This document shows positions 14,205-63,493 of a stretch of 64,000 nucleotides of DNA, piece by piece. The position numbers were made by a program, and so were the translations under genes. This DNA comes from Lachnospiraceae bacterium (GTDB taxonomy: Bacteria > Bacillota > Clostridia > Lachnospirales > Lachnospiraceae): assembly GCA_009777715.1 (NCBI GenBank), contig WRLH01000017.1, positions 2,191 to 66,190 of the forward strand. The letters are read 5' to 3'. Each line of letters begins with the position of its first letter. The first letter of the stretch is position 1. Under the pieces are notes generated by a model. That model ran no database searches, was not told the origin of the DNA, and saw nothing but the letters and a program-made list of their open reading frames with translations.

Positions 14205-14210
14205 GTTAAA

Positions 14211-19554: not shown

Positions 19555-20001
19555 GCGTGAGGATTCTTTGCACTTCAATGCAGACCCGCTTTCGCTCGAT
19601 GTAAAACGTTGCGTTACATAAGTTCGTCAAAAACACGAACTATGTAACGACGTTTTACAACGGTCTGCGTTTGAAGTCAAAAATCCTCTCGCGAATACAC
19701 TACGCCGCGAGGGCGAAAGTGCGGTTCATAAGGCCGGGCCTTGAGATATCGTCAAAACGATTCTCTCGGAGCGAAAGCGTCCCGGACGATGAAGCGACAG
19801 CTTTCGTCCACGCGGAAAGATTCGCATTTGCATTGAAGTACAAAGAATCCTTACGCGGAAAAAATCCGGACGATGAAGCGACAGCTTTCCTCCACGCGGA
19901 AAGATTCGCGTCTGCATTGAAGTGCAAAGAATCCTCACGCGGAAAAAATCCAGACGGTGAAGCGACAGCTTTCGCCTACGCGGAAAGATTCGCGCCTCCT
20001 T
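19555..20001. repeat. Mosaic repeat array downstream of alaS: 138-nt long hairpin (19555-19692), a collapsed H-module, then an 84-bp unit x2.6 (19782-20001)
   Basis: Hairpin arms are GCGTGAGGATTCTTTGCACTTCAATGCAGACC and GGTCTGCGTTTGAAGTCAAAAATCCTCTCGC, around TTGCGTTACATAAGTTCG...CGAACTATGTAACGA. Unit starts are at 19782, 19866 and 19950. Confidence 0.85.
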
Positions 20002-28790: not shown

Positions 28791-28914
28791 GATTGCGGGT
28801 CAGGCCCGCAATGACAATACCTTGGCGTGATTGCGGGTCAGGCCTGCAATGACAATAAATTGCTTGCGTCACCAGGGCCTCCGAGCCGCGTCATTGCGGG
28901 CTTGACCCGCAATC
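28791..28914. repeat. Cluster of three REP-like hairpins (28791-28815 +, 28829-28853 +, 28890-28914 -)
   Basis: GATTGCGGGTCAGGCCCGCAATGAC, GATTGCGGGTCAGGCCTGCAATGAC and GTCATTGCGGGCTTGACCCGCAATC, plus a GGCCTCCGAGCCGC half-site. Confidence 0.9.
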
Positions 28915-32552: not shown

Positions 32553-33773
32553 TTACTCCCCCAGCACCTTAAGGACAAGCTCCGCGATTTTCTGATGCCC
32601 CAGCGGATTCGGGTGAATGATGTCAAAGCTTAAATTCATCTTAGCAAGGTCAAGATAATAATTCATCAGCTCGCTTAAAGCTTCCATGTCAGCAAAGATT
32701 AAGTCAACGTCAGCGATCAAATAACCATAATTTTGCTCTGTAAAATTTTTTTGCTCTGTAAAATTTTTTTGCTCTGTAAAATTTTTTTGCTCTGTAAAAT
32801 TTTTTTGCTCTGCAAAATGATGCCCTGCAAAAATAATTTCATTAATTGCCTGTGTGTATGCCCCGGCTTGCCCGGCCAGATCAAGCTCTAACCCTAGCAC
32901 CGCTTCGGGAATTGGGTTGTAAAGCGTGTTGACAACGAGGGTTGCGCTGGGGGCATTCTCCTTAAGCCATGCGATAATTTCTGAAAACTCGGCCGCAAAA
33001 TCAGCGATTCCCTCTTCCATCTCGGCGGTCAATTCTTCGGGCAAAGGGCCTGCTAAAACCGCCAGCGGATTATTGGCGTTAAGCTCGTTCATGCGGGCAA
33101 AAATTTCCATTGAATCACCAAAAATTAAGGTTGCCCTTTGCAAAAATTCCCCGATTCTAAGTAAGTCAGACAAAGAAAAATTCTCCGATATGCCTTGAAG
33201 TTCAGCATTCAGCCCCTCAAATTCCCCGGCCACGCCCATGGCGTCAATCGCAATCGTGCCAACATCGGCAATCATGTCCGTGATGGCCTGGAAATCCGGA
33301 AGATAACTTATCATGGGCTTAAGGATATTGTTTCCGCCGATATTAAGGGAAATAATCCGCGCATTATTAATGGCATTAAGTTCATCTGCGTTCAAGCTAG
33401 AAAGCTGTTCCAGAAGCATTCCGGTTGTTAGCCCGGTTGCGCTAAAATTCTCGTAACGGTTCACGTCGCCTAATTCACTAAGCCGCTCAAAGACCAAATC
33501 CGGGTATCGCTCTTCTAAGGAAACGCCGTACCCGGCCGGGATTGAATCACCCAGCGCGATAAAAAAAAGCGGCTCGGGCTCTGGCTCTGGTTCTGGCTCT
33601 ACCTGCGCTTCCTCAAGGGTCAAAAAATCAAACGCACCGCTTCCCTCTTGCTGGCCCAGATTTAAGTTTTGCCCCTCATTATTTTTCTTAAGCAGCACGG
33701 CAATAATAACACCTGTTATTAAAAGGCACAAGATGAGGAATAAGATGATGACTTGATAAGTTGTTTTTTTCAT
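32553..33773 (-). CDS. Membrane-anchored SGNH/GDSL-family hydrolase
   Basis: 406 aa. Has an N-terminal TM helix, block I FIALGDSIPAGYG, block III GGNN and a C-terminal HPNPLGH. It contains an internal (EQKNFT)n repeat. Confidence 0.75.
   Translation of the reverse strand: MKKTTYQVIILFLILCLLITGVIIAVLLKKNNEGQNLNLGQQEGSGAFDFLTLEEAQVEPEPEPEPEPLFFIALGDSIPAGYGVSLEERYPDLVFERLSELGDVNRYENFSATGLTTGMLLEQLSSLNADELNAINNARIISLNIGGNNILKPMISYLPDFQAITDMIADVGTIAIDAMGVAGEFEGLNAELQGISENFSLSDLLRIGEFLQRATLIFGDSMEIFARMNELNANNPLAVLAGPLPEELTAEMEEGIADFAAEFSEIIAWLKENAPSATLVVNTLYNPIPEAVLGLELDLAGQAGAYTQAINEIIFAGHHFAEQKNFTEQKNFTEQKNFTEQKNFTEQNYGYLIADVDLIFADMEALSELMNYYLDLAKMNLSFDIIHPNPLGHQKIAELVLKVLGE
32733..32818 (-). 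repeat. In-frame 18-bp tandem repeat x4.7 (TTGCTCTGTAAAATTTTT) inside the SGNH hydrolase gene
   Basis: Units are at 32733, 32751, 32769 and 32787, with a partial unit at 32805. It encodes FTEQKNFTEQKNFTEQKNFTEQKNFTEQN. Confidence 0.9.
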
Positions 33774-35608: not shown

Positions 35609-35721
35609 GATTGCGGGTCAAGCCCGCAATGACGTAAAATGGGGTCATTCCGCAATGACGTAAAAGGGGGTCATTCCGCAATGACGTAAAAGGGGGTCAT
35701 TGCGGCCTCCGAGCCGCAATC
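35609..35721. repeat. REP cluster: REP(+) 35609-35633, two collapsed copies GTCATTCCGCAATGAC (35644-35659, 35670-35685) within a 26-bp tandem unit, REP(-) 35696-35721
   Basis: Read directly from the sequence. The last REP overlaps the stop codon of the 674-aa gene. Confidence 0.9.
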
Positions 35722-37742: not shown

Positions 37743-37820
37743 GATTGCGGGTCAAGCCCGCAATGACGTAAAAGGGTCAAGCACGTAAAATAAGGTCATT
37801 GCGGCCTCCGAGCCGCAATC
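37743..37820. repeat. REP pair: REP(+) 37743-37767 and REP(-) 37795-37820, between P1 and P2
   Basis: Same arrangement and flanks (TCTCCTATG.GTTTATAGATTGCGGG) as the cluster at 35592-35721. Confidence 0.9.
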
Positions 37821-37827: not shown

Positions 37828-40158
37828 CTAATTCTGCCGCAAATACTGCGCCGACACATAAGCGGTCGGTATGCCGCTGGTATAATTAATCGTCGCCCAG
37901 CCATTGCTTAACCCGGTCACCCTGACAATGTCCCCGGCGCGTAAAGTGCCGACTATCCGTCCGTTCATGCCCGGCGCGTTCCGGACAAACAGGCGCGAGG
38001 CCGGGCTTATATTAACGGCATATGCCATTACGCGGCCTGGGCTTGCTTCTGTTTCTAATGGCCTGACAGGGCCGCTAAGATGGTTAAGGTACATTAATGA
38101 CAGCCACGTCCCGGTATGGGCAAGCACCCAATCGCCATCAGGGCTAAATTCGATTATCTCTACAACCGTCCCCCTTGCCAATCTGCCGACTAGTGGGAAA
38201 TGAGTCCCCGGCCCGCTTCTTTCATTTAAAAAAGTAGCATTGACTGTATATAGAGACTTGGCTGGCGTTGGTGGATCTGGCTGTTCAGCCACTTCTGCTT
38301 GGGCTGCTGTATTTGGCACATTTGACCGATAACGCACTGGTGTGCCAATCAAAGTGCCGCTTCCACCAAAACCGCCGATCCGGCTTTCGATCACGCCATG
38401 ATTAATAATCGTCCCATTATTCGTTAATGTAATCCAGTTGGGAATCGTTAAAACGCTTCCTTGCGGTATGGTCAGCGTCTGGTATTCCCCAATCGTTAGG
38501 CTGTGCTTTAGCGTCACATTGCCGTAGACTGTGCATTCGTTATGGCTAAGCAAGATCCCTTGTGAACCAGGGGCCGGAAAGCTAGGGACTTCGCCGCTTA
38601 TTGAAGAGTCCCATGTCCAAACTGACGACGCATAAACAACGCGGCTGTCTTTTAGCACGAGGTCTCCGTACACGCTATAAATGCCGCCATCCCCCCCCCC
38701 GATCTGCCCGGTCGTGCCGTTTCCGGAAATGATGACATCGCCAGAACGTACGGCAATGCCTTTGCCGTCAGTTCCGCCATTTATCGCGCCGGTTGTCCCA
38801 GAGATAAGGACCCCGCCACTGTCTGAATTAATGCCGCCCAGGCCGCCATAAATGCTCCCCGTCGTCCCGGAAATAGTGACTCCAAGAGTTGCAACAAGGC
38901 CTCCACCGGAATCTCCGCCGCTAATCGCGCCGGTAGTCCCGGAGATTGTAATATCCCCCGCTCCTGCGCGGATGCCGTTAATTGTTCCTTGTATTCTCTC
39001 TGTCCTGCCAGCGATGGTGACATCTCCTGATTGTGTAATAATTCCATTAAAGGCACCGTAAATGTTCCCGGTCTGGCCCAGGATGGTGATATTGCCGTTA
39101 TTAGCTATAATGCCGCTCCCGCTGGGGCCCATGCCGCCAATATCGCCGAACGTCCCGGTTAGCGTAACGCCATTTACTGCGCCGATGGCGTGATTTCCAT
39201 GGCCGTAGATGTTAACGTCGCTGCCATCACCCCTTACAACTGCTTCGTGGTTAAGCCTTAGGGCCGGTTCAGTCGTCGAATCGCTCATAATCTTTGTCCC
39301 GGCCGCCAAGGTTATGTCTGTCGCATAAGTAATGACGACCGAGCGGCCGCCGCTATCGCCGGTCAGGATAATCGGCACGTTGTTTTCGGTAATGATAATG
39401 TTATTAAGGCTAATCATCCAGCTTGGGCCGGCAGCATTGTCAGGCGCAGCTGACAGTTCATCAAGGTCAAAAGTCATCGGGGGAGCGGCTGTCCATGTCG
39501 CCGTATACCACCGATGGCCAAAGGATCCAACCGGGATATGGACGCTCATCGTTGGTTCTGAAAGCCCTGTCCCCGTCCAGCCGGCAAAGGTAAAGTTTTG
39601 CTTGGTCGGGTTATTTAAGGTAATCGACTGATGATCCATAAAGCTTCCATAAATCGAAAACTGGACTGGGTTAGGGGTTAATGGGTTGACTGTCCCGCCG
39701 TCAAGGTCATAGAATATATCGTAAAGCACAGCACCCCACTCCGCTTGGACCGATATGTCGGAAGTAACAACGGTGTCAGCATCAAACGGCTCGATGCCTG
39801 TACCCGGATTATATAACCAGCCGTGGAAATAAAAACCGTCTCGCTCCGGGTCAGCCGGAAACCTCGTCCCTACTGTCTCGCCGTCAGCTACCGAGATGAC
39901 GATATTACCCGGATTAGGGGTGTAACCGTGGAAAAAAGTGACCGTGTGAGTGCCGGAGGCCCAGACGTTAAGCGTAAATGCCAGCATTAGCGTTAGCGTC
40001 AGAGCCAGTGTCAGCACCAGCCTCACCAGCACTGCACCAGCGTTAGCGTTAGCACTGGCGTTAGGGCCTGCGTTAGCACTGGCGTTAGCCCCTGCGTTAG
40101 CACTGGCGTTAGGGCTAAAGATTTTAGGATTTGGGGGGAAATTTGCTTTTGGTTTCAT
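37828..40158 (-). CDS. Secreted protein: low-complexity N-terminus, two Listeria-Bacteroides-type repeats, beta-helix repeats, two C-terminal SH3b domains (paralogue P2)
   Basis: 776 aa. HTVTFF...DGFYFHGW... and YDIFYDLDGG...FTFAGWTG resemble Flg_new-type repeats. The passenger and C-terminal modules are homologous to P1 and P3. Confidence 0.7.
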   Translation of the reverse strand: MKPKANFPPNPKIFSPNASANAGANASANAGPNASANANAGAVLVRLVLTLALTLTLMLAFTLNVWASGTHTVTFFHGYTPNPGNIVISVADGETVGTRFPADPERDGFYFHGWLYNPGTGIEPFDADTVVTSDISVQAEWGAVLYDIFYDLDGGTVNPLTPNPVQFSIYGSFMDHQSITLNNPTKQNFTFAGWTGTGLSEPTMSVHIPVGSFGHRWYTATWTAAPPMTFDLDELSAAPDNAAGPSWMISLNNIIITENNVPIILTGDSGGRSVVITYATDITLAAGTKIMSDSTTEPALRLNHEAVVRGDGSDVNIYGHGNHAIGAVNGVTLTGTFGDIGGMGPSGSGIIANNGNITILGQTGNIYGAFNGIITQSGDVTIAGRTERIQGTINGIRAGAGDITISGTTGAISGGDSGGGLVATLGVTISGTTGSIYGGLGGINSDSGGVLISGTTGAINGGTDGKGIAVRSGDVIISGNGTTGQIGGGDGGIYSVYGDLVLKDSRVVYASSVWTWDSSISGEVPSFPAPGSQGILLSHNECTVYGNVTLKHSLTIGEYQTLTIPQGSVLTIPNWITLTNNGTIINHGVIESRIGGFGGSGTLIGTPVRYRSNVPNTAAQAEVAEQPDPPTPAKSLYTVNATFLNERSGPGTHFPLVGRLARGTVVEIIEFSPDGDWVLAHTGTWLSLMYLNHLSGPVRPLETEASPGRVMAYAVNISPASRLFVRNAPGMNGRIVGTLRAGDIVRVTGLSNGWATINYTSGIPTAYVSAQYLRQN

Positions 40159-40752: not shown

Positions 40753-42306
40753 TTATTTTTCTATTATTTTCCAGGACCCGGTTTTATTAGACCCAATTCT
40801 TAATAGAATGCCATCCTGCTTCAATGCTTTTGTCTCACGCTCAATTGTTCTTGAGGACAAACCTGTTGCTTCTGCCAGTTGCTTCTTTGACATACTGGGG
40901 TTTTTCTCCAGCAGACCGATAATTAACTTGTGCCGATTTATACCGCCATTTATACCGCCATTTATACCGCCATTTATACCGCCATTTATACCGCCATTTA
41001 TACCGCCATTTATACCGCCATTTATATCATCATCTATTTCCTTACTGACATTAAACGCCTCATGTGCATAAATCGTTGCTATGAAATAATGACGGTCTTC
41101 ATCTGTTTCAAACTCCGGAGTCGGTGAACCGTTAATTTTTAAAGCTCGCAAAATCTTTGTAACGCCTGTTGATTTCTTTTCTGATAAATCTATTTCCTTA
41201 AAAAATTCACCTATGCGCCGATTGCGGTAACGTCTTGAAACAGCAAGTCCATTACTAAACTTTACCATATCAATGTGCTTCTCCGGGCCGGGATGATTGA
41301 TGACCATGATACGATTTAAGTAAATGCGAATTTCGACCGGCTCGTAAATACTATAGGATTTATGAAAAACTGCATTTACCAAAACTTCTTCCAATGCGTC
41401 ATATGGATAATTGAAAAATCGGTCTGCTTCAGCACGGTCACGATGCTTTACTACTTTTTCTTCGATTACGTTTGTCTTAATATACGAAAGAGCGTCGCGT
41501 ACCTGCTTATGTATCGGCCCTTTGAATATCTTTTCAACAAAATCATCAGATCCTTCGGCTTCTGGCGAGTTAAACCGTATCAGTTCAATTTGTGAGCATG
41601 GATGGAATTTTTCTGGCTTGTCCGAAAACATAAGTAAGCCAATGTTTCGGATATCGTATCCTGTATCGGTTACATTCGCTACTTCAAGGGCCGTAAGAAT
41701 GTCGCCTAGAGGCCTCTTGTCAATTTCACTGGCAAGTGAGCTGTTGCTCTCAACTAGATAATCCTCAAGATAAGCTCGGCGAATATCAGTGATTTTCGCT
41801 TCACGATTGACACGGTCATCTAATGGCACTGAAGTAAATTTCATAAAAAGTTCGTTAAGATCATCTCGTCTGGCAATAGTTTTTACTGATGACGGCTTAA
41901 TCCAAAACACTTTATTTGATTTGGTTTTTGCATAAATATCTTCGGGAGCTGAATATGGGCCGGCATCGCCACCTGAACACCAAAGATATAATAAGCATTT
42001 TTCCTGATAACGTATTATCTCAGATTTCGGAATATAGCGTGGTTCAATGAAATTGCAAAACCTAAATAACTCTTGCTGGATTTTATCTAATTCATTTTCA
42101 TCAACTCCGATGGGTGGTAAAATAGGGCGGCCATTCTTCTCTTCTATGCCAATGACGACATAACCGCCATTCGTATTCGAAAAATCATTAGCATATGCAC
42201 AAATGGTGGTAATAATCTCAGATGGATTCCAGCCACGTTTGTATTCCACGCGGTCATTTTCGACTATGCGGCCTTCTAATAGGGTTTCTAATTTTAGGGG
42301 AATCAT
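40753..42306 (-). CDS. AlbA_2 (Schlafen-like) / HATPase_c_4 / C-terminal winged-HTH protein (putative ATP-binding transcriptional regulator)
   Basis: The N-terminus LLEGRIVENDRVEYKRGWNP is the AlbA_2 hallmark, and the central VLVNAVFHKSY...INHPG matches HATPase_c_4. The C-terminal LLEKNPSMSKKQLAEATGLSSRTIERETKAL is an HTH. ATG 42306 lies 4 nt after the P3 stop, with AAGGTG upstream. Confidence 0.75.
   Translation of the reverse strand: MIPLKLETLLEGRIVENDRVEYKRGWNPSEIITTICAYANDFSNTNGGYVVIGIEEKNGRPILPPIGVDENELDKIQQELFRFCNFIEPRYIPKSEIIRYQEKCLLYLWCSGGDAGPYSAPEDIYAKTKSNKVFWIKPSSVKTIARRDDLNELFMKFTSVPLDDRVNREAKITDIRRAYLEDYLVESNSSLASEIDKRPLGDILTALEVANVTDTGYDIRNIGLLMFSDKPEKFHPCSQIELIRFNSPEAEGSDDFVEKIFKGPIHKQVRDALSYIKTNVIEEKVVKHRDRAEADRFFNYPYDALEEVLVNAVFHKSYSIYEPVEIRIYLNRIMVINHPGPEKHIDMVKFSNGLAVSRRYRNRRIGEFFKEIDLSEKKSTGVTKILRALKINGSPTPEFETDEDRHYFIATIYAHEAFNVSKEIDDDINGGINGGINGGINGGINGGINGGINGGINRHKLIIGLLEKNPSMSKKQLAEATGLSSRTIERETKALKQDGILLRIGSNKTGSWKIIEK
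40931..41026 (-). repeat. In-frame 12-bp tandem repeat x7 (+1 degenerate) CCGCCATTTATA encoding (GGIN)7
   Basis: Seven perfect units at 40943-41026, preceded by TGCCGATTTATA. It sits in the linker before the C-terminal HTH. Confidence 0.92.
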
Positions 42307-49122: not shown

Positions 49123-49204
49123 GATTGCGGCGCAGGGCCGCAATGACACAATGTTTACACAAGTACATTTCAAGGGAAATATGCGGCTTGGGGGCCGCAA
49201 TGAC
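49123..49204 (+). repeat. Two REP-like hairpins (49123-49147; degenerate 49179-49204) within a ~57-bp tandem duplication
   Basis: GTTTATACAAGTACTTTCAAGGGGGATTGCGGCGCAGGGCCGCAATGACACAA is followed by GTTTACACAAGTACATTTCAAGGGAAATATGCGGCTTGGGGGCCGCAATGACACAA. Confidence 0.85.
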
Positions 49205-53882: not shown

Positions 53883-54003
53883 ATCTTGCGGGCTAGAATA
53901 AGCTTGTTTTTTAGTTTTGATTGTAAAGATGTGGCAGAAAAGCCACGGCGTGTATCATTAATTTATCCATGCTCGTTGCAAAGTCTGGATACTTTCAATC
54001 TTT

Positions 54004-54900
54004 TCAGCGTCTTGGATGGGCCTTGGCATACATATCACGCATCCGGTTATGTTGCATATTGGCGTAAATCTGCGTTGTTGAGATATCAGAATGGCCAAGC
54101 ATTTCCTGCACAATCTGTAAATCCGCCCCATTTTCGATTAAATGCGCGGCAAAAGAATGCCTTAGCGTATGGGGAGTGATATCCGCGCTGATTCCGGCTT
54201 TTTTGGCATAAAATTTGATCAGCTTCCAAAATCCTTGCCTGCTCATGGGCTGGCCTTGGCAATTAACAAATAAAATTTCGTTTTCGGGATTTTCAATCAT
54301 CTGCTCTCTGCCGCCGCTTAAGTATTTGAGAATCGCTGTCCTTGCCGCGCTGCCAAAAGGGATAATCCGCTCTTTTCCGGTGCTTTTGCTTCCGTAAGAG
54401 CAAATAATATAACCCATCTGTAAATTTAGGTCTGTCATTTTAAGTGAAACCAGCTCCGTCACCCTGATACCTGTCGCATAAAGCAGTTCCAGCATTGCTT
54501 TATCGCGAAGCTCTTTAGGCGTCGCCCCGGCCGGCTGCTCTAATAAACGGATTACCTCTGATGTCGATAAAACATCGGGAGCTTTCCTTTCAATCCGGGG
54601 GGCTTTTAAAACATCTGAAACGTCAACCGCAATCATTCCCTCTTTCATCATATAATAATAAAAAGCTTTGATGGAAGATATGTTCCGGGAAATTGTGGCG
54701 GCGGAAAACTTATTTTTTTCAAGGAATAAAATATATGAATTAAGATTGGTCACGGTAATATCGGAAACATTGGCAATTCCTTGCTGTCTCATATAAAGAT
54801 TCACTTTATTAAGGTCACGGCGATAAGACATTGCTGTATTATCAGAAGTTTTCTTAGTATTATGTAAATAAGAAATGAATGAGTTGATTACTTGTTCCAT
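54004..54900 (-). CDS. xerD: Site-specific tyrosine recombinase XerD/XerC
   Basis: Contains the R...HxxR...Y catalytic set (ATGIRVTEL; HTLRHSFAAHL; LGHSDISTTQIYA). ATG 54900 (MEQVINSFISYL) is preferred over the longer track ORF. Confidence 0.85.
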   Translation of the reverse strand: MEQVINSFISYLHNTKKTSDNTAMSYRRDLNKVNLYMRQQGIANVSDITVTNLNSYILFLEKNKFSAATISRNISSIKAFYYYMMKEGMIAVDVSDVLKAPRIERKAPDVLSTSEVIRLLEQPAGATPKELRDKAMLELLYATGIRVTELVSLKMTDLNLQMGYIICSYGSKSTGKERIIPFGSAARTAILKYLSGGREQMIENPENEILFVNCQGQPMSRQGFWKLIKFYAKKAGISADITPHTLRHSFAAHLIENGADLQIVQEMLGHSDISTTQIYANMQHNRMRDMYAKAHPRR

Positions 54901-55064
54901 ATCTTTAAAAATCTCCCTGGTTTCCGGCTGGTAAGTTTTATTATAATCGCAATCGGCAAGAAATGCAAACACTAATTTCCTTTATTTTAAGCTATTTTCA
55001 GTCATTTTTTTCCAGATACAATATCTCGTAATTTTTATAAAAAATTACACAAGATATAGGCTGG

Positions 55065-55664
55065 CTAAAATATTTTTAATAATTCGGTCAGGATGATTGG
55101 GTTTACATAACTTTCCAAAATACTGCCAATTATGACAACTCCAAAAATCCATAATAAAATAGCCCCTTTCCTTAACAGGTAATGCTTTTGGGTTGGGGCC
55201 TTTTCCGTAACCCGGTTGGGGAAGTAAAATCTCATGCACAGCTGGCAGCCCCAGTTTAGAAGCATTATCCATGCCGGGACCAGCAAAAGCTGCTGGGGGA
55301 ATACTCCGGCAAAAAAAAGCAGGATTCCTTTAAAGCCATAGCGGATTACCGCGGCCGTCAGGAACATTCCGGTTAAGACTCCCTGCCAGGCAACAAACAG
55401 GTATGACGCGATAATGCCGATAAAGGTGGTGGAAAAAATAATTAAGATAAAGGCGGTTTTTAGTCTTTCAAAAAGGGTGTAGCGCAGCAGCATTGTGCCG
55501 TCAACATTAAGGTATTTGATCCGGCTTAGGGTGCTGGAGTTTAGGATTCCGCCATCACTTAGGAAATAGGTTTTGGCGATATTCATAATTAAAATGCCAG
55601 CAATGAAGCTGCCAGCAAATGTTAAAAGCCATTTAAGATAACGTTCGGTTTCTCTTCTTGCCAT
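55065..55664 (-). CDS. spoIIM: Stage II sporulation protein M
   Basis: 199 aa with five predicted TM helices and a C-terminal ILESYVNPIIL. Its position next to xerD is typical of SpoIIM. Confidence 0.6.
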   Translation of the reverse strand: MARRETERYLKWLLTFAGSFIAGILIMNIAKTYFLSDGGILNSSTLSRIKYLNVDGTMLLRYTLFERLKTAFILIIFSTTFIGIIASYLFVAWQGVLTGMFLTAAVIRYGFKGILLFFAGVFPQQLLLVPAWIMLLNWGCQLCMRFYFPNRVTEKAPTQKHYLLRKGAILLWIFGVVIIGSILESYVNPIILTELLKIF

Positions 55665-55742
55665 CGCATTCTCCTAGCTGTAACATTATATGCTGGCTTG
55701 TTCAAGTAATTCTCTTTTTTGCCCGGCTCGCTTTTGGCCTGC

Positions 55743-55768
55743 GTCATTGCGGCCTCCGAGCTGCAATC
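55743..55768 (-). repeat. REP-like hairpin (GTCATTGCGGCCTCCGAGCTGCAATC)
   Basis: Family member with one stem mismatch. Confidence 0.85.
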
Positions 55769-55800
55769 TGGGCCCGACCCGCTTTCATTATTTTAGTACA

Positions 55801-56041
55801 GTACATGAGTAAATAAATTTCTACGCCTGCCCGGGAGACTTCGAAATCAAAGGACTAAAATGCCCAATTTTCGGCCATAATTTGCTCCTCAATTGAGCAT
55901 TTTACACCTCTTGCATTTCACAAGCGTAGCTTGTGAAACTGCAAAAAACTAAAGTTTTTTATAAAAAGTGGAAATTTTAATTTCCACACTATGATTTTCT
56001 TGTCTCAAAGGGCAGGGCATAGAAATTTTTTGCTCATGTAC
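55801..56041. mobile_element. MITE-like nested palindrome, copy E2, interrupted by an ~85-bp insertion (55905-55989) that carries the AGTGGAAAT module
   Basis: The arms match 57266-57476. In E3 the right arm reads GCATTTTATGATTTC without interruption. In E2 the same site reads GCATTTTA[CACCTC...CCACAC]TATGATTTT. Confidence 0.75.
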
Positions 56042-56135
56042 TTTACAATCTAGCCAAGCCTAGCGGGTCAGGCGATTACTAAACACTTTACCTTGCGATA
56101 GAGAGTGCGATAAAATGTTTAAATCGCACTCTCTG

Positions 56136-56162
56136 ACTAATATGATTGTTGATAGGGATATA
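56136..56162. repeat. Left 27-bp inverted repeat of the XRE cassette
   Basis: ACTAATATGATTGTTGATAGGGATATA. It matches the reverse complement of 57083-57109 at 25 of 27 positions. Confidence 0.85.
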
Positions 56163-56254
56163 TTTTCTATCCTGTGGCAATAGGAGTGTTTTGGCAAACA
56201 GGGAGTGTATGACAAATAGGACGCTTGCCACAGCTACAACGCAAAAAATACTTA

Positions 56255-56935
56255 TTAGGCACGATGTTCCTCGCATAATAACGCAAATATATGCTTCACA
56301 TCCTCAGTTGAGTTAAGTCCGAGAGTTATGAAATGGCATTGTTTATAGTCTACGCCCTCAAATGTGTATATCATAGTGTAAGGACATTTATTGCATTGAC
56401 AGCTTTTGCAATCATTGCACCTGAAATTCGCCTTTATGTATTCCGGCATATCGTTGATAACATGCATATAATTTGAGCAGTTCTGCAAAGCGAGCCTTAC
56501 AACGATGTTGTCGTTTTCAATATCCATTCTGATGATAAAATCATCCTTATCTGGATTGTTGAATATTGAGCTGCAGCTGTTAAAAACTGCGTCAAATACA
56601 TTGTATTCGTTTTTGTAGCTTATCGTGAAGCTAAACCTATCTTTCATCTTTTGGTAAAGCAGCAACGCAAACTCACTGCTCTTACCGTCTACGGCATCCG
56701 CGAAGTCCTGAAAAGCTGTGTCTTGTGCGGCGAATGGCAAAAGCATCGAGTCTATCGAGCAATTCAATATCTGTGCCAACAACGGGAGCAGAGCCGTTTC
56801 AGGCAAAGTATGTCCATTTTCCCATTTGCTTATTGCCTGTGCGGTTATTCCGACTTTTTCAGCCAATTCCTCTTGTGTGAGTTTGCTTTGCTTACGCAAA
56901 GCGGCAATTTTATTGCCTACTGCCACGTTATCCAT
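56255..56935 (-). CDS. XRE-family HTH regulator fused to a Cys-rich C-terminal domain
   Basis: ATG 56935 lies 9 nt after GGAGG. The HTH is IAALRKQSKLTQEELAEKVGITAQAISKWENG. The C-terminus FRCNDCKSCQCNKCPYTMIYTFEGVDYKQCHF suggests a metal-binding module of unknown family. Confidence 0.7.
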   Translation of the reverse strand: MDNVAVGNKIAALRKQSKLTQEELAEKVGITAQAISKWENGHTLPETALLPLLAQILNCSIDSMLLPFAAQDTAFQDFADAVDGKSSEFALLLYQKMKDRFSFTISYKNEYNVFDAVFNSCSSIFNNPDKDDFIIRMDIENDNIVVRLALQNCSNYMHVINDMPEYIKANFRCNDCKSCQCNKCPYTMIYTFEGVDYKQCHFITLGLNSTEDVKHIFALLCEEHRA

Positions 56936-57031
56936 ACATAAAACCTCCAACTATAATAATTTTATAATAAATTAATTATAGCTCCTATAAACTCATTTTT
57001 CCATGTAATACAGGTTGTTTTTTCGGAAACA

Positions 57032-57052
57032 AACTTAACTTGAAGTTAAGTT
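57032..57052. promoter_or_regulatory. Perfect 21-bp palindrome AACTTAACTT-G-AAGTTAAGTT upstream of the XRE gene (candidate operator)
   Basis: Read directly from the sequence. It lies about 97-117 nt upstream of the XRE start, inside the inverted-repeat-bounded cassette. Confidence 0.4.
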
Positions 57053-57082
57053 CTGAAAATATAAATTTTATACGTACATCCT

Positions 57083-57109
57083 TATATCCCTATCAGCAAC
57101 CATATTAGT
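57083..57109. repeat. Right 27-bp inverted repeat of the XRE cassette
   Basis: TATATCCCTATCAGCAACCATATTAGT. Confidence 0.85.
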
Positions 57110-57124
57110 TTTGGTCTGCGTTAT

Positions 57125-57149
57125 GTCATTGCGGACTTGCTCCGCAATC
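57125..57149 (-). repeat. REP-like hairpin (GTCATTGCGGACTTGCTCCGCAATC), left end of the composite palindrome
   Basis: Family member. Its partner in opposite orientation is at 57667-57692. Confidence 0.9.
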
Positions 57150-57265
57150 TCACTATTCTGTTTACGTGTCACACGCACTCACCCGCACTCCGCGCGTGAT
57201 TTGCACTCCGCGCGTTTGAGAGCTGCCGATTCATCGCCCGACCCGCAATCTCATTATTTTGTAAA

Positions 57266-57476
57266 GTACATGAGCAAATAAATTTCTACGCCTGCCCGGG
57301 AGACTTCGAAATCAAAGACTAAAATGCCCAATTCTCGGTCATAAAAATAAATCGCGGCAAATTCCTATTTTATATACAGGAATCTTGCTCGCGATTTTTT
57401 TTATTTGGTCCTCAATTGAGCATTTTATGATTTCTTGTCTCAAAGGGCAGGGCGTAGAAAATTTTTGCTCATGTAC
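57266..57476. mobile_element. MITE-like nested palindrome, copy E3 (uninterrupted)
   Basis: GTACATGAGCAAATAAATTTCTACGCCTGCCCGGGAGACTTCGAAATCAAAGACTAAAATGCCCAATTCTCGG...central AAATCGCGG..CGCGATTTTTTTT hairpin...CCTCAATTGAGCATTTTATGATTTCTTGTCTCAAAGGGCAGGGCGTAGAAAATTTTTGCTCATGTAC. Confidence 0.75.
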
Positions 57477-57666
57477 TTTACAATCTAGTCAAGCCTAGCG
57501 GGTCAGGCGATTACTAAACACTTTACCGTGCGATAGAGAGTGCGATTCATAAGACCGACCCTTGAGAAAACGTCAAAACGATTCTCTCGGAGCGAAAGCG
57601 GGTCGGGCGGTGAATCGGCAGCTCTCAAACGCGCGGAGTATGAATCACGCGAAAACACCATAATGG

Positions 57667-57692
57667 GATTGCGGCTCGGAGGCCGCAATGAC
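57667..57692 (+). repeat. REP-like hairpin (GATTGCGGCTCGGAGGCCGCAATGAC), right end of the composite palindrome
   Basis: Family member, 9 nt downstream of the NUDIX stop codon. Confidence 0.9.
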
Positions 57693-57700
57693 GCACACTC

Positions 57701-58258
57701 TCAAACGCGCGGAGTGCGAGTTGCGAGCGAAGTATGGGCAAGATACGCCATAATCGCCGCAACTGTCTTTGAATCCTGAATCTCGCAAGCAAAAATCTTT
57801 TGGCAAAGCGAGTCAACATCATGAGCCTCTACATTGATATACTCGTCCTCGTCCAAATCCTGCTGGCCAGATTTTAACCCTCTCGCCACATAAATATCAA
57901 TTTTTTCATTGCAAAATGCCACCGTGGTATAAATAGAAATCAATAATTCGAAAGAATCAGCGGCATACCCGGTCTCTTCAAGCAACTCACGCCGCGCCGC
58001 TTCAATGGTCGGCTCGCCCTTATAATCAACGCAGCCCGCCGGAATCTCCAACGTATATCGCTCCAGGGCATTACGGTATTGGCGGACCATGATTAATTTT
58101 CCGTCATCACGCACCGCAATAACGGCAGCTGCCCCTTGGTGGTCAATAAAATCCCATTTAGCAATATTCCCATTCGGAATCTGCATTGTGTCCTCATAAA
58201 AATCAATCACATTCCCTTTGTGGACAAGGTCTCTTTTTAACCGCTTAATTTCTTCCAT
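57701..58258 (-). CDS. NUDIX hydrolase (ADP-ribose pyrophosphatase-like)
   Basis: 185 aa. The Nudix box is GCVDYKGEPTIEAARRELLEETGY. The last ~7 codons and the stop lie in a repeat module. Confidence 0.85.
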   Translation of the reverse strand: MEEIKRLKRDLVHKGNVIDFYEDTMQIPNGNIAKWDFIDHQGAAAVIAVRDDGKLIMVRQYRNALERYTLEIPAGCVDYKGEPTIEAARRELLEETGYAADSFELLISIYTTVAFCNEKIDIYVARGLKSGQQDLDEDEYINVEAHDVDSLCQKIFACEIQDSKTVAAIMAYLAHTSLATRTPRV

Positions 58259-58262
58259 GGCT

Positions 58263-59537
58263 TTACATCTCCTCTAAAAACTTCCTGACACTAACAAGCT
58301 TTAAGCAAAGAACAAACAAATCCATCGCCTTGCGCAAATCTTCCACGCTCGGAAATGACGGCGCAATCCGGATATTGCTGTCGTTTGGGTCAAGCCCATC
58401 AGGATATGCCGCCCCGGCCTTTGTCATTGTTACCCCTGCTTCCTTTAATAGTGAAATAATCGCCTTTGCGCTCCCATTAATGCCGTCAAATGATATAAAA
58501 TAACCGCCTTTTGGTTTCTGCCATGTCCCAATCCCCAGGCCGCCAACTTCTTGCTCCAATTTATCAAGCACGATTTCAAATTTGGGCCTTAAAAGGGCAG
58601 CGTGTTTTTCCATATGGGCCTTAATGAAAGCCGGATCGCGGAAAAATTTTACATGACGGAGCATATTAAGCTTATCCGCACCAATCGTTTTAGCACCCAT
58701 GGAAGCTTTAATAAAATCAAGATTGGCTTTTGAAGCACAAAGAGCCGAAATGCCAGCTCCGGCAAAACTAATCTTTGAAAATGAAGAAAAATAATAAACC
58801 AGATCGGGGTTACCTGCTTTCTTGCATTCAGAAAAAAGGTCAAGGATTTCATCTTGCTCATCTTCATATAAATGATGGATCGCGTAAGCATTATCCCAAT
58901 AAATGCGGAAATCCTCGGCGGCGGGCTTAAGACAGGCAAATCTTTTTACCGTCTCATCACTATAGCTTATGCCTTGCGGATTGGAATATTTTGGCACGCA
59001 CCAAATCCCTTTGACCGATTTATCCTCATTTACGTATTTTTCGACTATCGCCATGTCCGGGCCGCTTTCAGACATCGGAATCGTAATCATTTCAATTCCA
59101 AAATGCCCGGTTATCCTAAAATGGCGGTCGTAACCCGGAGCTGGGCAAAGAAATTTCACTTTTTCACTTAAGTACCACGGCGGCGAGCCATTTACGCCAT
59201 GGGTCACCGAATTAGAAATCATGTCGTACATCAAATTCAAGCTGGAATTTCCGCTCACAAACACATTTTCAAACGGAACGGAAAGCAATTCAGAAAATAA
59301 AACCCTTGCTTCCTTTATCCCGGCCAAACCGCCGTAATTGCGGCAGTCAATCCCATCACTTGTATGAGTTTCATCAATTGCCAGCATCCGATTGCTTAGA
59401 TCAAGCTGCTCCGGTGAGGGTTTGCCCCTTGACATATCAAGTTTTAAGCCTTTTTTCTTCGCTTCATCATAGCTTGCTTCCAATTCTTTTAGCAAGCCTA
59501 AAAACTCTGATTTTGATAAATTTTCGTATTTTTTCAT
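58263..59537 (-). CDS. Class I/II PLP-dependent aminotransferase
   Basis: ATG 59537 (MKKYENLSKSEF) overlaps the upstream stop (ATGA). The PLP-lysine context is YYFSSFSKISFAGAG. The track start at 59639 is unlikely. Confidence 0.75.
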   Translation of the reverse strand: MKKYENLSKSEFLGLLKELEASYDEAKKKGLKLDMSRGKPSPEQLDLSNRMLAIDETHTSDGIDCRNYGGLAGIKEARVLFSELLSVPFENVFVSGNSSLNLMYDMISNSVTHGVNGSPPWYLSEKVKFLCPAPGYDRHFRITGHFGIEMITIPMSESGPDMAIVEKYVNEDKSVKGIWCVPKYSNPQGISYSDETVKRFACLKPAAEDFRIYWDNAYAIHHLYEDEQDEILDLFSECKKAGNPDLVYYFSSFSKISFAGAGISALCASKANLDFIKASMGAKTIGADKLNMLRHVKFFRDPAFIKAHMEKHAALLRPKFEIVLDKLEQEVGGLGIGTWQKPKGGYFISFDGINGSAKAIISLLKEAGVTMTKAGAAYPDGLDPNDSNIRIAPSFPSVEDLRKAMDLFVLCLKLVSVRKFLEEM

Positions 59538-63122: not shown

Positions 63123-63386
63123 GTGAAATTTTTGGCTGAATTAACTTCCTTAAGAAATATCGGTAAAGAATTAGAAAGAAAATTAAAGTCTATTGGTATT
63201 TTCACGGCAGAAGAATTAAAAGAAGCTGGCAGTAAAGATGCCTTCTTCAAACTAAAGCTACACTACCCAAATGTATGCCTTGTTCATCTTTATACTCTTG
63301 AGGGAGCAATTTCTGATGTTGAATATAACCAATTGCCAGAAGATGTAAAATGCACCTTGAAAGAGTTTAGCGATAGTTTGAAGTAG
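63123..63386 (+). CDS. TfoX C-terminal domain protein
   Basis: LTSLRNIGKELERKLKSIGIFTAEELKEAGSKDAFFKLK resembles the helix-hairpin-helix of TfoX_C. The start is uncertain: GTG 63123, TTG 63111 or TTG 63132. Confidence 0.5.
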   Translation: MKFLAELTSLRNIGKELERKLKSIGIFTAEELKEAGSKDAFFKLKLHYPNVCLVHLYTLEGAISDVEYNQLPEDVKCTLKEFSDSLK

Positions 63387-63392
63387 GTTTGC

Positions 63393-63493
63393 AAAATGCC
63401 CAATTTTCGGTCATAAAAATAAATCGCGGCAAATTCCTACTTTGTGAACACCGAACTAAAGTTCGTGGAATCTTGCTCGCGATTATTTATTGG
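63393..63493. repeat. Fragment of the MITE-like element (central hairpin plus one inner arm)
   Basis: AAAATGCCCAATTTTCGGTCATAAAAATAAATCGCGGCAAATTCC...GGAATCTTGCTCGCGATTATTTATTGG matches the core of 57300-57410. Confidence 0.7.

Follow-up and report, generated by a model that had tools for sequence, protein, structure and literature searches.

Inverted repeats around an XRE-family regulator gene at the NUDIX/spoIIM junction of a Lachnospiraceae bacterium, and a putative cassette family in termite-gut Clostridia

The NUDIX/spoIIM junction and the repeats within it

Between the start of spoIIM (55664) and the stop codon of the NUDIX gene (57701) in the window, by which we mean the whole 64-kb stretch of Lachnospiraceae DNA analyzed here, there is a gap of 2036 nt filled with dispersed repeats, and among these lies a small cassette that carries a regulator gene between inverted repeats (Table 1). 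The initial annotation had placed the cassette in a repeat-filled gap of 2 kb and had supposed that the two bordering genes are usually close neighbors, and the relatives bear this out: where SpoIIM is 78-80% identical (L065, L066, L067) the NUDIX-spoIIM spacing is 66-71 nt and the XRE gene is absent. The synteny aminotransferase-NUDIX-spoIIM-xerD-DAHP synthase is kept in L066/L067 and L068, with three genes between xerD and DAHP synthase in L064, and xerD, found at 54004-54972 in the window, 1.2 kb from the cassette, is a syntenic neighbor also in relatives that lack the cassette. Other, unrelated insertions are present in the NUDIX/spoIIM gap of relatives. The intergenic region is ancestrally about 70 nt long, and REP-type mosaic repeats have also accumulated in it in the window genome. 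For genome annotation, the cassette family accounts for an anomaly of 2 kb where a sporulation gene meets its conserved neighbor.

Table 1. Features of the cassette, its flanks and the bordering genes (positions in the window)
Feature	Position	Strand	Remarks
spoIIM, border of the ancestral junction	55065..55664	-	Pfam SpoIIM, E = 1.7e-14
Left flank, one copy of the mosaic dispersed intergenic repeat	55732..56134	+	direct repeat of the right flank
TIR at the gene-end (distal) end	56136..56162	.	family core 56138-56162
Family linker, 3' of the cargo stop codon	56163..56254	-	aligns with the linker of L014, L021, L046, L049
XRE-family regulator gene, 226 aa	56255..56935	-	HTH_3 and Cys-cluster C-terminal alpha/beta domain
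XRE leader and promoter	56975..57023	-	conserved AAAAAACAACCTGTATTACATGG (57001-57023), then TGGAAA-17-TATAAT (57003 to 56975)
Perfect 21-bp palindrome	57032..57052	.	AACTTAACTTCAAGTTAAGTT; putative operator of the XRE protein
Conserved subterminal P-end segment	57056..57082	-	window sequence AGGATGTACGTATAAAATTTATATTTT; family consensus AGGGAAGCGTAGAAAATTTATATTWT
TIR at the gene-start end (P-end)	57083..57109	.	family core 57083-57107; 25/27 complementary to 56136-56162
Right flank, second copy of the mosaic repeat	57110..57700	+	57110-57547, then further inverted modules to the NUDIX stop codon
NUDIX hydrolase gene, other border of the ancestral junction	57701..58258	-	Pfam NUDIX, E = 1.2e-13

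A REP-like hairpin occupies 55743-55768 of the left flank, a REPIN-like inverted doublet follows at 55796-56046, and a hairpin with a 12-bp stem lies at 56100-56134; the right-flank repeat (57110-57547) is 95-97% identical to the left flank in the shared blocks. Modules of these flanks recur at 9500-9900, 19550-19990 and 22776-23350, and a comparison with other copies of the mosaic repeat (9738-9800) suggests that at the cassette site about 15 nt have been replaced, the repeat not being cleanly interrupted. A near-identical strain, known from a second, independent assembly, has exactly the same arrangement and orientation. The GTAG-tag motif GCGTAGAAAATTT has one further occurrence in the window, and a link between the cassette and the flanking repeats through this tag was set aside as too weak.

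The 27-bp inverted repeats that had been described as bracketing the cassette are real, the sequence ACTAATATGATTGTTGATAGGGATATA (56136-56162) being able to pair with 57083-57109 at 25 of its 27 bases. The terminal repeat (TIR) has two copies within the window when up to three mismatches are allowed, 100 dinucleotide-preserving shuffles of the window contained none, and it is far above chance expectation. According to the comparison with the other loci described below, the conserved termini of the window cassette are 56138 and 57107, which gives a repeat of 25 nt and a cassette of 970 bp, the two additional matching bases on each side being specific to the NUDIX/spoIIM locus; the size of the segment is in this way 970-974 bp, depending on whether the family core or the full 27-bp match defines the terminus. 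The ends are slightly degenerate, with two mismatches between the arms and two in the P-end motif, and the window copy may now be immobile.

On the distal side, the linker of the window copy contains the motifs AAGTATTTTTTGCGTTG (56237-56253) and GTCCTATTTGTCATAC (56207-56222) together with the hexamer tract GTAGCTGTGGCAAGC (56223-56237), as well as a 9-bp stem in which 56172-56180 pairs with 56225-56233, and the z-score for its folding as single-stranded DNA is -2.5; the family-consensus motif ATTTTCTACG within the linker reads as the P-end's CGTAGAAAAT on the opposite strand. The TIR ends (P-end and distal end) fold no better than shuffles (z = -1.1, -0.2, +1.3), and there is no internal dyad in the TIR. 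When 54000-59000 was compared with Rfam at E <= 1, and the complete window at gathering thresholds, sub-threshold noise or nothing was returned, and by this comparison the repeats are not a known RNA.

The regulator gene and its putative operator

The XRE gene is, as the initial annotation had it, the only credible gene between the arms, and its ATG lies 8 nt after a GGAGG. The N-terminal Cro/C1-type helix-turn-helix domain by which XRE proteins are recognized is present: HTH_3 (PF01381) is matched at residues 10-62 (E = 7e-17, Pfam), and in Foldseek this part matches the HTH domains of P22 c2, C.BclI and ClgR with TM values of 0.65-0.87 (target-normalized). The C-terminal domain carries a cysteine cluster of the form FRCxDCxSCxCxxCPY...QCH, and about 85 full-length homologues at 48-71% identity keep C153, C176, C179, C184, C200 and H201 invariant. 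The AlphaFold model has a pLDDT of 89.5 over the full protein and 90.3 over the C-terminal domain; no Pfam family matched the C-terminal 160 residues, and the structure search that had been proposed for the Cys-rich domain gave no significant PDB match. YjbR/DUF419-like folds were the best structure matches of this domain and were rejected, with TM values of only 0.35-0.54 and E > 0.3. A family of regulators of roughly 230 aa, having a conserved Cys-cluster domain with neither a Pfam nor a PDB relative, is in this way brought to attention.

The perfect 21-bp palindrome noted initially was located upstream of the gene (Table 1), and a corresponding dyad, AACTTAAC-N5-GTTAAGTT, is found about 100-120 nt upstream of the XRE homologues in L005, L006 and L007, and in degenerate form in L009. 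The homologues in L005, L006 and L007 sit in unrelated loci without terminal repeats, and a check for repeats in the flanks of these three and of L009 found only weak AT-rich chance pairs; homologues elsewhere retain the palindrome and the leader and have no TIR, P-end or linker. The gene had also been credited with its own promoter region, and indeed the promoter-like site scores 10/12 and the leader motif is kept in the homologues of L005 and L006, a conservation from which it follows that the leader/promoter region arrived together with the XRE gene. The palindrome is probably, on the strength of its recurrence in front of homologues, the protein's own operator. Once resident, the cargo probably represses its own gene through binding to the 21-bp palindrome and would sense a signal via the Cys cluster, and this signal could perhaps be redox state or a metal.

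Other loci with the same ends

The initial annotation had suggested looking for further copies of the terminal repeat, and the search brought to light 16 further loci in which the 25-nt core, TAATATGRTTGTTGATAGGGATATA, recurs almost unchanged; these belong to MAGs of termite-gut Oscillospiraceae and Defluviitaleaceae and to unbinned contigs of the same metagenomes. The genome scan, with ATGNTTGNTGATAGGGATATA as query, gave 18 matches where about 4 were expected by chance (2 x 596 Gb / 4^19), and 11 of the 18 are in termite-gut MAGs, with 22-25 of 25 bases and subterminal similarity besides. The MAGs with the TIR are Oscillospiraceae bins 47, 69, 70, 102 and 109, Gx485_bin182 and Defluviitaleaceae bin142, each with a low number of copies (1-2). 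The metagenome scan added more TIR loci, again from termite-gut samples, which are those of PMC7024585. L044 and L052 match the TIR at 24 of 25 positions. Pattern matches in Herbinix/Clostridiales, marine contigs, Erwinia, Psychrobacter and Cronbergia, and in Aquificales, Bacteroidales, C. liquoris and one viral contig, were rejected, since neither the outer TAAT nor similarity in the subterminal bases is present in them; in the Herbinix group the match falls within a coding motif that is conserved, has the sequence MIGDRDIDILAAKNAG and is HAD-like by eye.

Inverted pairs of the TIR bound cassettes of 0.46-1.24 kb (1073 bp in L014, 1052 in L022, 461 in L024, 1073 in L046 and 766 in L061), and no complete cassette is longer than about 1.24 kb; those of L049 and L038 have degenerate distal ends. 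Read in the sense of the genes, the layout consists of the 25-nt TIR, about 26 conserved subterminal bases, a variable cargo gene, the linker, optionally the gene of a RAYT-like Y1 (HUH) tyrosine transposase or an endonuclease-like DUF559 gene, and the inverted TIR. The P-end 25-mer with 0-3 mismatches terminates cassettes in L014, L022, L024, L046, L049 and L061, among others, and the distal TIR of the window (56138-56162) is identical at 25 of 25 positions to the distal repeats of L014, L020, L022, L028 and L035. Thirteen aligned P-ends agree over about 50 nt and diverge from precisely the point where the ribosome-binding site of the cargo starts. A sigma-70 scan of the L024 P-end detected no inward-facing promoter, the only site in L024 being TTAATA-16-TATAAT, which reads inward from the distal TIR; from its position the P-end could be a promoter, or it may be a site where a transposase binds. 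In L014, L021, L046 and L049 the linker separates the first cargo gene from the gene for Y1 or DUF559.

The cargo is diverse: Pfam assigns GNAT (4 different), Glyoxalase/VOC, YCII (2), FMN_red, DUF3788-like, DUF559 and Y1_Tnp, and methyltransferase-like and TPR-like proteins were assigned by inspection only. At one site, occupied in the two strains of L046 and L061, the cargo differs, while the left 36 nt are identical and the block on the right, made up of the distal end of the cassette and its flank, agrees at 98.8% over 249 nt, with the same orientation in both. Among eight loci with both ends, the flanks have no duplication longer than 2 bp (possibly TA), and nearly every terminus begins with TA; in L014 and L022 the gene upstream terminates at the TAA of the TIR, and the predictions of a TA duplication conflict between these two. 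The loci compared include no transposition event, no excised form and no filled and empty pair at nucleotide resolution. The cassette is unmatched in 72,556 plasmids and 50,697 phage records, and no insertion sequence with these termini was met with in the genome, metagenome and viral scans or in the plasmid and phage collections. No description of such a cassette family was found in the literature searched. By these comparisons the window repeats are the conserved ends of a family of small cassettes with different accessory genes in termite-gut Clostridia.

A Y1 gene is present in 5 of the 17 distinct TIR loci. In L014 a GNAT gene and the Y1 gene lie between TIRs at 2588-2612 and 3636-3660, and L049 is similar. 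The proteins of L014 and L049 match PF01797 with 25.4 bits and NCBIfam REP_Tyr_transpos with 71 and 56 bits, which is below the equivalog cutoff of 80 bits, and by eye the motifs are intact: HUH (NHIH), WQ and the tyrosine motif (YIDENP). In the four loci where the end of the gene is intact (L014, L028, L035, L049) the 3' junction is constant, with the stop codon, 5 nt and then the TIR, and the last 128-154 nt of the gene together with the TIR are 89-96% identical in DNA, the TIR-linked proteins being 45-59% identical to that of L014. By this junction Y1 looks like a resident of the family and not like random cargo. Two homologues sampled independently of the TIR (P0258, 54% identity; P0183, 70%) are not flanked by it and carry classical REPs with GTAG and a GC hairpin, and P0183 is closer to the Y1 of L014 than is the TIR-linked Y1 of L049; since such homologues lack the TIR, the Y1 genes could themselves be passengers. 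Neither a Y1 nor a DUF559 gene is present in the window cassette or in the 64-kb window, and the window copy, being without a transposase, is therefore non-autonomous.

Mode of movement and comparison with known systems

The explanation that we prefer, and that we judge to be somewhat better than even, is that the window segment is a TIR-bounded cassette of a family that circulates among termite-gut Clostridia and is moved in trans, Y1 being the favored enzyme. The cassette would move, or would have moved, by means of an enzyme supplied in trans, most likely the family's own Y1 acting on the ends, as has been proposed for TIRtrons; the conserved P-end would help to express the cargo, and cargo could have been exchanged through recombination between the conserved ends. 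The window copy keeps the linker without Y1 and for this reason looks like a derivative that lost the Y1 gene. Among the possibilities that the initial annotation had put forward, that of a non-autonomous mobile cassette is favored, as the same termini bound unrelated cargo in unrelated loci of several bacterial families, relatives have no such cassette between NUDIX and spoIIM, XRE homologues lack the repeats, and the window has no Y1 or DUF559 gene; the possibility of a remnant of a larger element holds in part, in that the linker which precedes Y1 in fuller members is kept. Of the outcomes that had been named as unfavorable to a mobile element, neither the lack of any other copy of the repeat nor the same gene without inverted repeats at this position in relatives occurred in the material compared. 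Against the preferred explanation stand the presence of only two TIR copies in the window, the lack of a Y1 or DUF559 gene there, and ends without hairpin folding, known Y1 HUH enzymes acting on single-stranded hairpins; moreover, the two large direct repeats that abut the cassette allow its arrival by homologous recombination instead of transposition.

As to the mobilizing enzyme, we infer that Y1, in a TIRtron-like arrangement, is to be favored, and that the main rival is an unseen DDE insertion sequence. According to this rival, which we consider possible though rather unlikely, the cassette derives, as a mobile insertion cassette or MITE-like element, from a conventional DDE insertion sequence (for example, a TA-duplicating one of the IS630/mariner type), moved in trans by a transposase encoded on a full-length IS that failed to assemble in these MAGs, with Y1 and DUF559 as frequent passengers. 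The architecture is the classical one, 25-nt TIRs and passenger genes with no transposase inside, the TA at nearly every terminus is compatible with a 2-bp TA duplication, many matches lie near contig ends, as expected of a multicopy IS-related sequence that breaks assemblies, and the Y1 homologues picked independently lack the TIR. However, none of the 17 TIR loci has a DDE transposase beside the TIR, no complete cassette exceeds the size given above, the plasmid and phage collections contain no match, and the ends are asymmetric, a P-end of 50 nt facing a distal block of 128-154 nt that overlaps the 3' end of Y1, which is better explained by a resident Y1. The window copy could also be an immobile relic that never transposed to its present place and that arrived or persists through homologous recombination between the direct mosaic repeats of roughly 400 nt (55732-56134 and 57110-57547), or through general recombination with foreign DNA, the TIRs being fossils of an old element. 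These repeats directly abut the TIRs, the arms differ at two positions and the P-end motif is degenerate, the near-identical strain has the same arrangement, and relatives have unrelated insertions in the same gap. We nevertheless regard the relic as improbable: it leaves unexplained the identical TIRs around different cargo in other bacterial families, and the TIRs have kept 24-25 of their 25 bases, with Y1 proteins that have diverged to 45-59% identity, which implies selection on the ends and hence a family that is functional now or was so recently. With regard to the origin of the window copy, moreover, it is compatible with the preferred explanation.

The readings that involve recombination at the repeats themselves appear far weaker. 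An invertible segment, flipped by a recombinase with an effect on the expression of the regulator or its neighbors, had been among the initial proposals, and an inverted pair of 25-27 bp about 0.9 kb apart is indeed within the known range of invertons, with a tyrosine recombinase gene, xerD, 1.2 kb away; this we hold to be very improbable, and the proposal finds no support. Since gene, operator and promoter are all inside the repeats, inversion would not switch the XRE gene; the orientation is constant in two independent assemblies, and likewise in L046 and L061; xerD is syntenic in relatives that lack the cassette, no dedicated invertase is linked to the window copy and no recombinase gene accompanies the other TIR-bounded cassettes examined; and the content varies between loci, which inversion cannot produce. 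Scarcely credible is a Xer/dif-type module, in which the neighboring XerD would act on the repeats as XerC/XerD sites in inverse orientation: there is a discrete gene module between inverted sites of ~27 bp, with no transposase and with xerD adjacent, but against what we take to be the dif/pdif sequences of E. coli, B. subtilis and Acinetobacter, the TIR agrees at only 11 of 25-28 aligned positions, fewer than shuffles do on average, an internal dyad around a 6-bp spacer is lacking, and the linkage to xerD is ancestral synteny. Finally, the inverted repeat might have arisen by chance or serve regulation, for instance as a pair of operators for the XRE protein, and mark no element boundary, given that XRE proteins bind dyad sites and that one arm is upstream of the gene. 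No chance matches are expected, however, the conserved operator is the 21-bp palindrome and not the TIR, the XRE homologues lack the TIR, and the TIR bounds cassettes that lack the XRE gene, so that by sequence comparison this reading is effectively refuted.

With respect to the systems already described, the cassette is like mobile insertion cassettes, or MICs (MIC231 of the Bacillus cereus group; the qnrS2/qnrD MICs), in that IS-like TIRs bracket passengers without a transposase over about 0.5-2 kb, and the window copy, which contains the XRE gene only, is such a TIR-bracketed passenger. By definition the ends of a MIC match those of a known IS, which supplies the transposase for its movement, and MICs have target-site duplications; for the cassette family, in contrast, the scans and the plasmid and phage collections yielded no parent IS, the flanks show no duplication beyond a possible TA, the ends are asymmetric, with a conserved gene-start end of 50 nt, and the sole transposase-like gene inside the family is a Y1 HUH gene and not a DDE one. 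The pdif modules of Acinetobacter plasmids are similar as gene modules between inverse sites of ~27-28 bp, without a transposase and with shared boundaries around different cargo, but the TIR has neither XerC/XerD arms nor similarity to dif (as presumed above), and the cassettes are chromosomal and not on plasmids.

Y1 enzymes of the RAYT type are widespread and often regarded as domesticated, and their described substrates are REP/REPIN repeats without cargo. The genomes that host the cassette family are rich in GTAG REPs/REPINs and RAYT genes, and the likeness to the REPIN/RAYT system (Bertels and Rainey, 2011, PMC3116915; PMC5581495) consists in non-autonomous inverted-repeat units tied to a RAYT-family Y1, with the GTAG-containing motif CGTAGAAAAT adjoining the cassette TIR. 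REPs, however, are hairpin palindromes of 20-40 nt in tens to hundreds of copies, with short spacing and no cargo, whereas the cassette 25-mer has no hairpin and is of low copy number, with arms 0.4-1.2 kb apart and always a gene between them. An identity of the TIR as a REP hairpin was rejected, given the folding z-scores reported above, the two copies in 64 kb and the genes enclosed by the pairs.

The closest arrangement is that of the TIRtrons (TIRYT), RAYT-like genes flanked by TIRs that also form repeat families (Di Nocera et al., 2013, PMC3733652; subclass 2.1 and others in Quentin et al., 2018, PMC6006769). There, as in L014 and L049 exactly, a RAYT-like Y1 HUH gene (Y---NP) lies between long TIRs that are not REP hairpins, and the TIRs are also dispersed as a moderately repeated family. 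The differences are that the TIR TAATATGRTTGTTGATAGGGATATA is unrelated to the GGGGWSAS consensus reported for most TIRtrons (PMC3733652) and lacks that motif, that the family adds a variable cargo upstream of Y1, a promoter-like end and a linker, that many of its copies, including that of the window, hold cargo without Y1, and that its hosts are termite-gut Clostridia. TIRtrons have been described only twice, and the passages of the two accounts consulted mention neither passengers nor derivatives that bear cargo (PMC3733652; PMC6006769). The window element, which has no TIRYT gene, is at most a non-autonomous derivative of a TIRtron. A bolder and more doubtful proposition is that these are the first recognized cargo-carrying derivatives of the RAYT/TIRYT system, with a Y1 HUH enzyme mobilizing, in cis and in trans, promoter-bearing cassettes of swappable genes.

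With integron gene cassettes the family shares a size of about 0.5-1 kb, usually a single gene, and exchangeable cargo between conserved boundaries (L046 and L061), and the cassettes of environmental integrons typically carry GNAT acetyltransferases and glyoxalase/VOC proteins. The TIR cassettes differ in having no apparent attC, array, attI or intI, the sole integrase-family gene near the window cassette being the syntenic xerD, and in being solitary, with TIRs on both sides, dispersed in the chromosome and provided with their own conserved upstream segment. If the bolder proposition were true, the family would constitute a functional analogue of the integron built on an HUH enzyme, shuffling detoxification, acetyltransferase and regulator genes across families of termite-gut Clostridia. 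A family whose interchangeable accessory genes lie between the same 25-nt ends, next to a conserved gene-start end, would open a new way for genes to pass among gut Firmicutes, the cargo so far comprising GNATs, VOC, YCII, a flavoprotein and a regulator; the defined ends and the candidate enzymes provide a concrete substrate for testing whether RAYT-like enzymes move genes.

The cassette and its surroundings

The NUDIX gene and spoIIM, separated by 2036 nt in the window, enclose two 27-bp inverted repeats (56136-56162, ACTAATATGATTGTTGATAGGGATATA, and 57083-57109) which are complementary at 25 of 27 positions and are the only copies of the 27-mer in the window with up to three mismatches allowed (none in 100 shuffles). 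The sole credible gene between the repeats (56255-56935, minus strand; 226 aa) has GGAGG 8 nt ahead of its ATG and an HTH_3 domain at residues 10-62 (Pfam, E = 7e-17); a perfect 21-bp palindrome, at 57032-57052, is also enclosed. The repeats, the sole gene, the palindrome and the repeat-filled gap of about 2 kb were all part of the initial annotation and are borne out here, as is its statement that these genes are usually close neighbours: NUDIX and spoIIM are 66-71 nt apart in the relatives L065 (SpoIIM 80% identical) and L066/L067 (78%), the latter keeping the full synteny aminotransferase-NUDIX-spoIIM-xerD-DAHP synthase. This short gap in the more distant relatives is the ancestral state. 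The same junction carries unrelated insertions in two other relatives, one with a methyltransferase, PadR and DUF2812 and the other with a 213-aa ORF (L064, 2767-4929; L068, 4081-4722), and thus seems to be a place of recurrent integration or of variation.

In a near-identical strain (ENA ERZ27257348 k141_195608) the arrangement is that of the window, and over 2.1 kb the two differ by no more than four transitions, clustered in a 50-bp part of the XRE gene (56607-56655), two of them non-synonymous (H to R, I to V). The clustering points to a short patch of gene conversion or to an assembly of mixed strains.

The gap is made of dispersed intergenic repeats, so that the cassette sits in a repeat-colonised region, the 27-mer itself not being one of those repeats; both copies of the mosaic repeat directly adjoin the inverted repeats (see the table). 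The REP-like hairpins are high-copy, intergenic and often in tandem or inverted clusters. No RAYT gene is present in the 64-kb window, and no Rfam family matches the cassette region or the whole window. The REPIN-like doublets have differing small, terminator-like hairpin modules inserted between their arms, and their unit has the stretch GCGTAGAAA(A)TTT in common with the cassette subterminal motif. The 84-nt and 66-nt arrays flank a segment of about 3.3 kb that is bounded by inverted repeats of 135 nt with 98% complementarity (19559-19693, 23041-23175), and some of the short-period tandem repeats are probably within genes for repetitive proteins.

Features of the window and cassettes of the family (positions in the window unless a locus is named)
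Feature	Position	Length	Remarks
Window cassette linker	56163-56254		aligned with the family linker
Mosaic repeat	55732-56134; direct repeat at 57110-57547	~400 nt	95-97% identity in shared blocks
Further mosaic modules	9500-9900; 19550-19990; 22776-23350; 63386-63450
REP-like hairpin GTCATTGCGG-N7-CCGCAATC	e.g. 10114-10156; 23353-23404; 28806-28899; 35624-35705; 37758-37804; 49138-49204; 55743-55768; 57125-57149; 57667-57692		at least 25 window sites
REPIN-like inverted doublets of GGGCAGGSCGTAGAAAWTTTTTGCTCATGTACTTTACAA	55796-56046; 57259-57483	unit ~39 nt	arms 147-177 nt apart
Pieces related to GGGCAGGSCGTAGAAAWTTTTTGCTCATGTACTTTACAA	9851-9906; 63386-63450
Tandem arrays	19782-19993; 23145-23348	84 nt (x3) and 66 nt (x3)	built from mosaic intergenic modules
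Short-period tandem repeats	5766-5975; 6432-6536; 14205-14360; 40032-40115; 40924-41055; 32731-32820	periods 15, 21, 12, 12, 12, 18 nt
Three paralogous blocks	35724; 37828; 42320	300 nt
DUF559 gene	L046 8932-9560; oriented cassette positions ~580-1073		nested inside TIR cassette
Window cassette		970 bp	both ends
L014 cassette		1073 bp	both ends
L022 cassette		1052 bp	both ends
L024 cassette		461 bp	both ends
L046 cassette		1073 bp	both ends
L061 cassette		766 bp	both ends
L049 cassette		~1240 bp	distal repeat degenerate
L038 cassette		~520 bp	distal repeat degenerate

Cassettes with common ends and varied genes

A scan of one genome per GTDB species with the pattern ATGNTTGNTGATAGGGATATA gave 18 matches against about four expected by chance (arithmetic estimate). 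Eleven lie in termite-gut MAGs (Oscillospiraceae Th196P3 bins 47, 69, 70, 102 and 109, Gx485_bin182 and Defluviitaleaceae bin142), and there the likeness spans the full 25-nt terminal inverted repeat (TIR; TAATATGRTTGTTGATAGGGATATA) and sequence beyond it; the others show no such extension and seem to be coincidences, by chance or in coding sequence. More TIR loci came from the metagenome scan, again in samples of the termite-gut type, and the Th196 MAGs come from the guts of higher termites (PMC7024585). With duplicates merged there are 17 distinct loci, eight of them with both ends present. Two contigs outside termite-linked samples (L044 1395-1419, L052 7554-7578) match the TIR at 24 of 25 positions, including the outer TAAT, with no subterminal similarity, and are either coding coincidences or distant relatives of the family.

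Read in the sense of the gene, each cassette consists of the TIR, some 26 conserved bases (AGGGAAGCGTAGAAAATTTATATTWT), the cargo gene, a linker, an optional second gene and the inverted TIR. The similarity beyond the TIR ends exactly at the ribosome-binding site of the cargo, and the linker begins at or just past its stop codon with (T)AATAAGCATTTTCTACGTTG, followed by two to four YGGCTG and then by TGGCAAGCRTCCTATTTGTCATACAAATAG with a small hairpin. ATTTTCTACG of the linker is reverse-complementary to CGTAGAAAAT of the subterminal segment, so that the two form another inverted repeat, inside the first, on either side of the cargo. Both the subterminal motif (GTAGAAAATTTATATTA, with GGAGG and a start codon after it) and the linker motif (AAGCATTTTCTAC) are found, too, at places that have no outer TIR (L070 1427-1971, L055 5041-5192, L049 5613-5630), in L070 bracketing a NUDIX gene beside a classical GTAG REPIN, so that the inner repeat may be a module in its own right. 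In two loci the TIR supplies, with its initial TAA, the stop codon for the host gene that precedes it, which encodes a histidine kinase (L014 2588-2590) or a ComF-like protein (L022 4337-4339), and these insertions are therefore exactly at gene 3′ ends.

The cargo comprises, by Pfam, four different GNAT acetyltransferases, a glyoxalase/VOC protein, two YCII proteins, an FMN reductase and a DUF3788-like 316-aa protein, and, by inspection only, a methyltransferase-like and a TPR-like protein; in the window it is the XRE regulator. The second gene takes two forms. One is a DUF559 gene (Pfam, E = 4e-28), which has a Vsr-like endonuclease fold and lies between the arms of a GC-rich inverted repeat of its own, about 40 nt long (ATTCCCCTCCTTGGAGGGGTG...GGGGTGGTTA), and of which L024, L048, L061 and L020 retain just the 3′ end and that repeat; gene and repeat look like a second, even smaller selfish unit. 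The other is a RAYT-like HUH tyrosine transposase gene, Y1 (PF01797, 25.4 bits; NCBIfam REP_Tyr_transpos, 71 and 56 bits against a cutoff of 80), whose motifs NHIH, WQ and YIDENP put it into class 2 of PMC6006769.

Evidence for an exchange of cargo comes from two different termite metagenomes (L046, L061), where the same chromosomal site bears differing cargo between the same ends, the left flank being identical over 36 nt and the right block (distal cassette end and flank) 98.8% over 249 nt. The window copy has the TIR, a slightly degenerate gene-start end, the linker and the distal TIR, with no second gene, and is very probably a member of this TIR-bounded, horizontally distributed family, inserted here. 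As no transposase is found in the cassette or elsewhere in the 64 kb, the copy is non-autonomous; that first reading of it, a mobile cassette lacking a transposase, agrees both with this and with the varied cargo of the family.

The XRE regulator

Full-length members of the XRE family number about 85 (48-71% identity), and the homologues examined lie in unrelated contexts in which TIR, gene-start end and linker are all absent. They retain the upstream AACTTAAC-N5-GTTAAGTT dyad, some also the next AAAAAACAACYTGTAWTACATGG leader, so that the gene was captured with its own operator and promoter (promoter-like site TGGAAA-17-TATAAT). The N-terminal domain superposes on the HTH domains of P22 c2, C.BclI and ClgR. 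The Cys-rich domain that had been noted behind it stands as an alpha/beta fold, well modelled by AlphaFold (mean pLDDT 90.3 alone, pTM 0.86; full protein 89.5), and has no significant PDB match (best YjbR/DUF419-like, TM 0.35-0.54, E > 0.3), and the C-terminal 160 residues of the protein match no Pfam family even at E = 10. Residues C153, C176, C179, C184, C200 and H201 are invariant (FRCxDCxSCxCxxCPY...QCH), and the model is least certain in the Cys loop (pLDDT 66-75), as would be expected had the prediction left out a bound metal or Fe-S cluster. The protein probably functions as an autoregulated repressor in which one domain senses a metal or the redox state.

Proposed mobilisation and known systems

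Several other explanations of the repeats were rejected. An invertible segment acted on in trans, also proposed in the initial annotation, finds no support, the orientation being constant across the independent assemblies compared and promoter and gene both lying inside the repeats, and xerD is an ancestral neighbour; the TIR has neither the likeness to dif nor the dyad structure of an Xer/dif module; a REP or REPIN is contradicted by the lack of a hairpin, the low copy number and the gene always being enclosed; and if the repeats were a pair of XRE operators they would not also bound cassettes without an XRE gene, the operator being the 21-bp palindrome.

Y1, in five of the 17 loci, is the sole transposase-like gene inside the family, and we tentatively propose that its enzyme could mobilise the cassettes, the window copy being non-autonomous. 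All four loci with an intact gene end (L014, L028, L035, L049) share one junction, namely stop codon, 5 nt and TIR. The Y1 proteins have only 45-59% identity to that of L014, yet over the final 128-154 nt of the gene and the TIR the DNA is 89-96% identical, and the TIRs match at 24-25 of 25 positions. Such conserved ends around a free interior look like cis-acting transposon ends. Against Y1, the known enzymes of this type have hairpin substrates, and folding analysis gave no hairpin at the cassette ends; Y1 homologues are very numerous (at least 1,998), and two of them sampled irrespective of the TIR (54% and 70% identity) are flanked by GTAG and GC-hairpin REPs, not by the TIR; and the cassette flanks show no target-site duplication beyond a possible TA. 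The main rival is a DDE insertion sequence of conventional type that failed to assemble, such as an IS630-like element duplicating TA. No DDE element with these termini was found in the genome, metagenome and viral scans, nor in plasmid or phage collections. The layout of Y1 and TIR fits the published, little-studied TIRtron/TIRYT arrangement (PMC3733652; PMC6006769). The explanation combining the TIR cassette family with Y1 is one that we favour with modest confidence.

The ingredients are known: TIR-bounded passenger cassettes (MICs), TIR-flanked RAYT-like genes (TIRtrons) and single-gene cassettes that can be exchanged (integrons, pdif modules). Their combination as seen here in termite-gut Clostridia was not found in the literature searched; it joins a conserved 25-nt TIR and its gene-start end of 50 nt to an inner inverted repeat that contains GTAG, a linker, accessory genes that can replace one another and, in some members, a Y1 or DUF559 gene.
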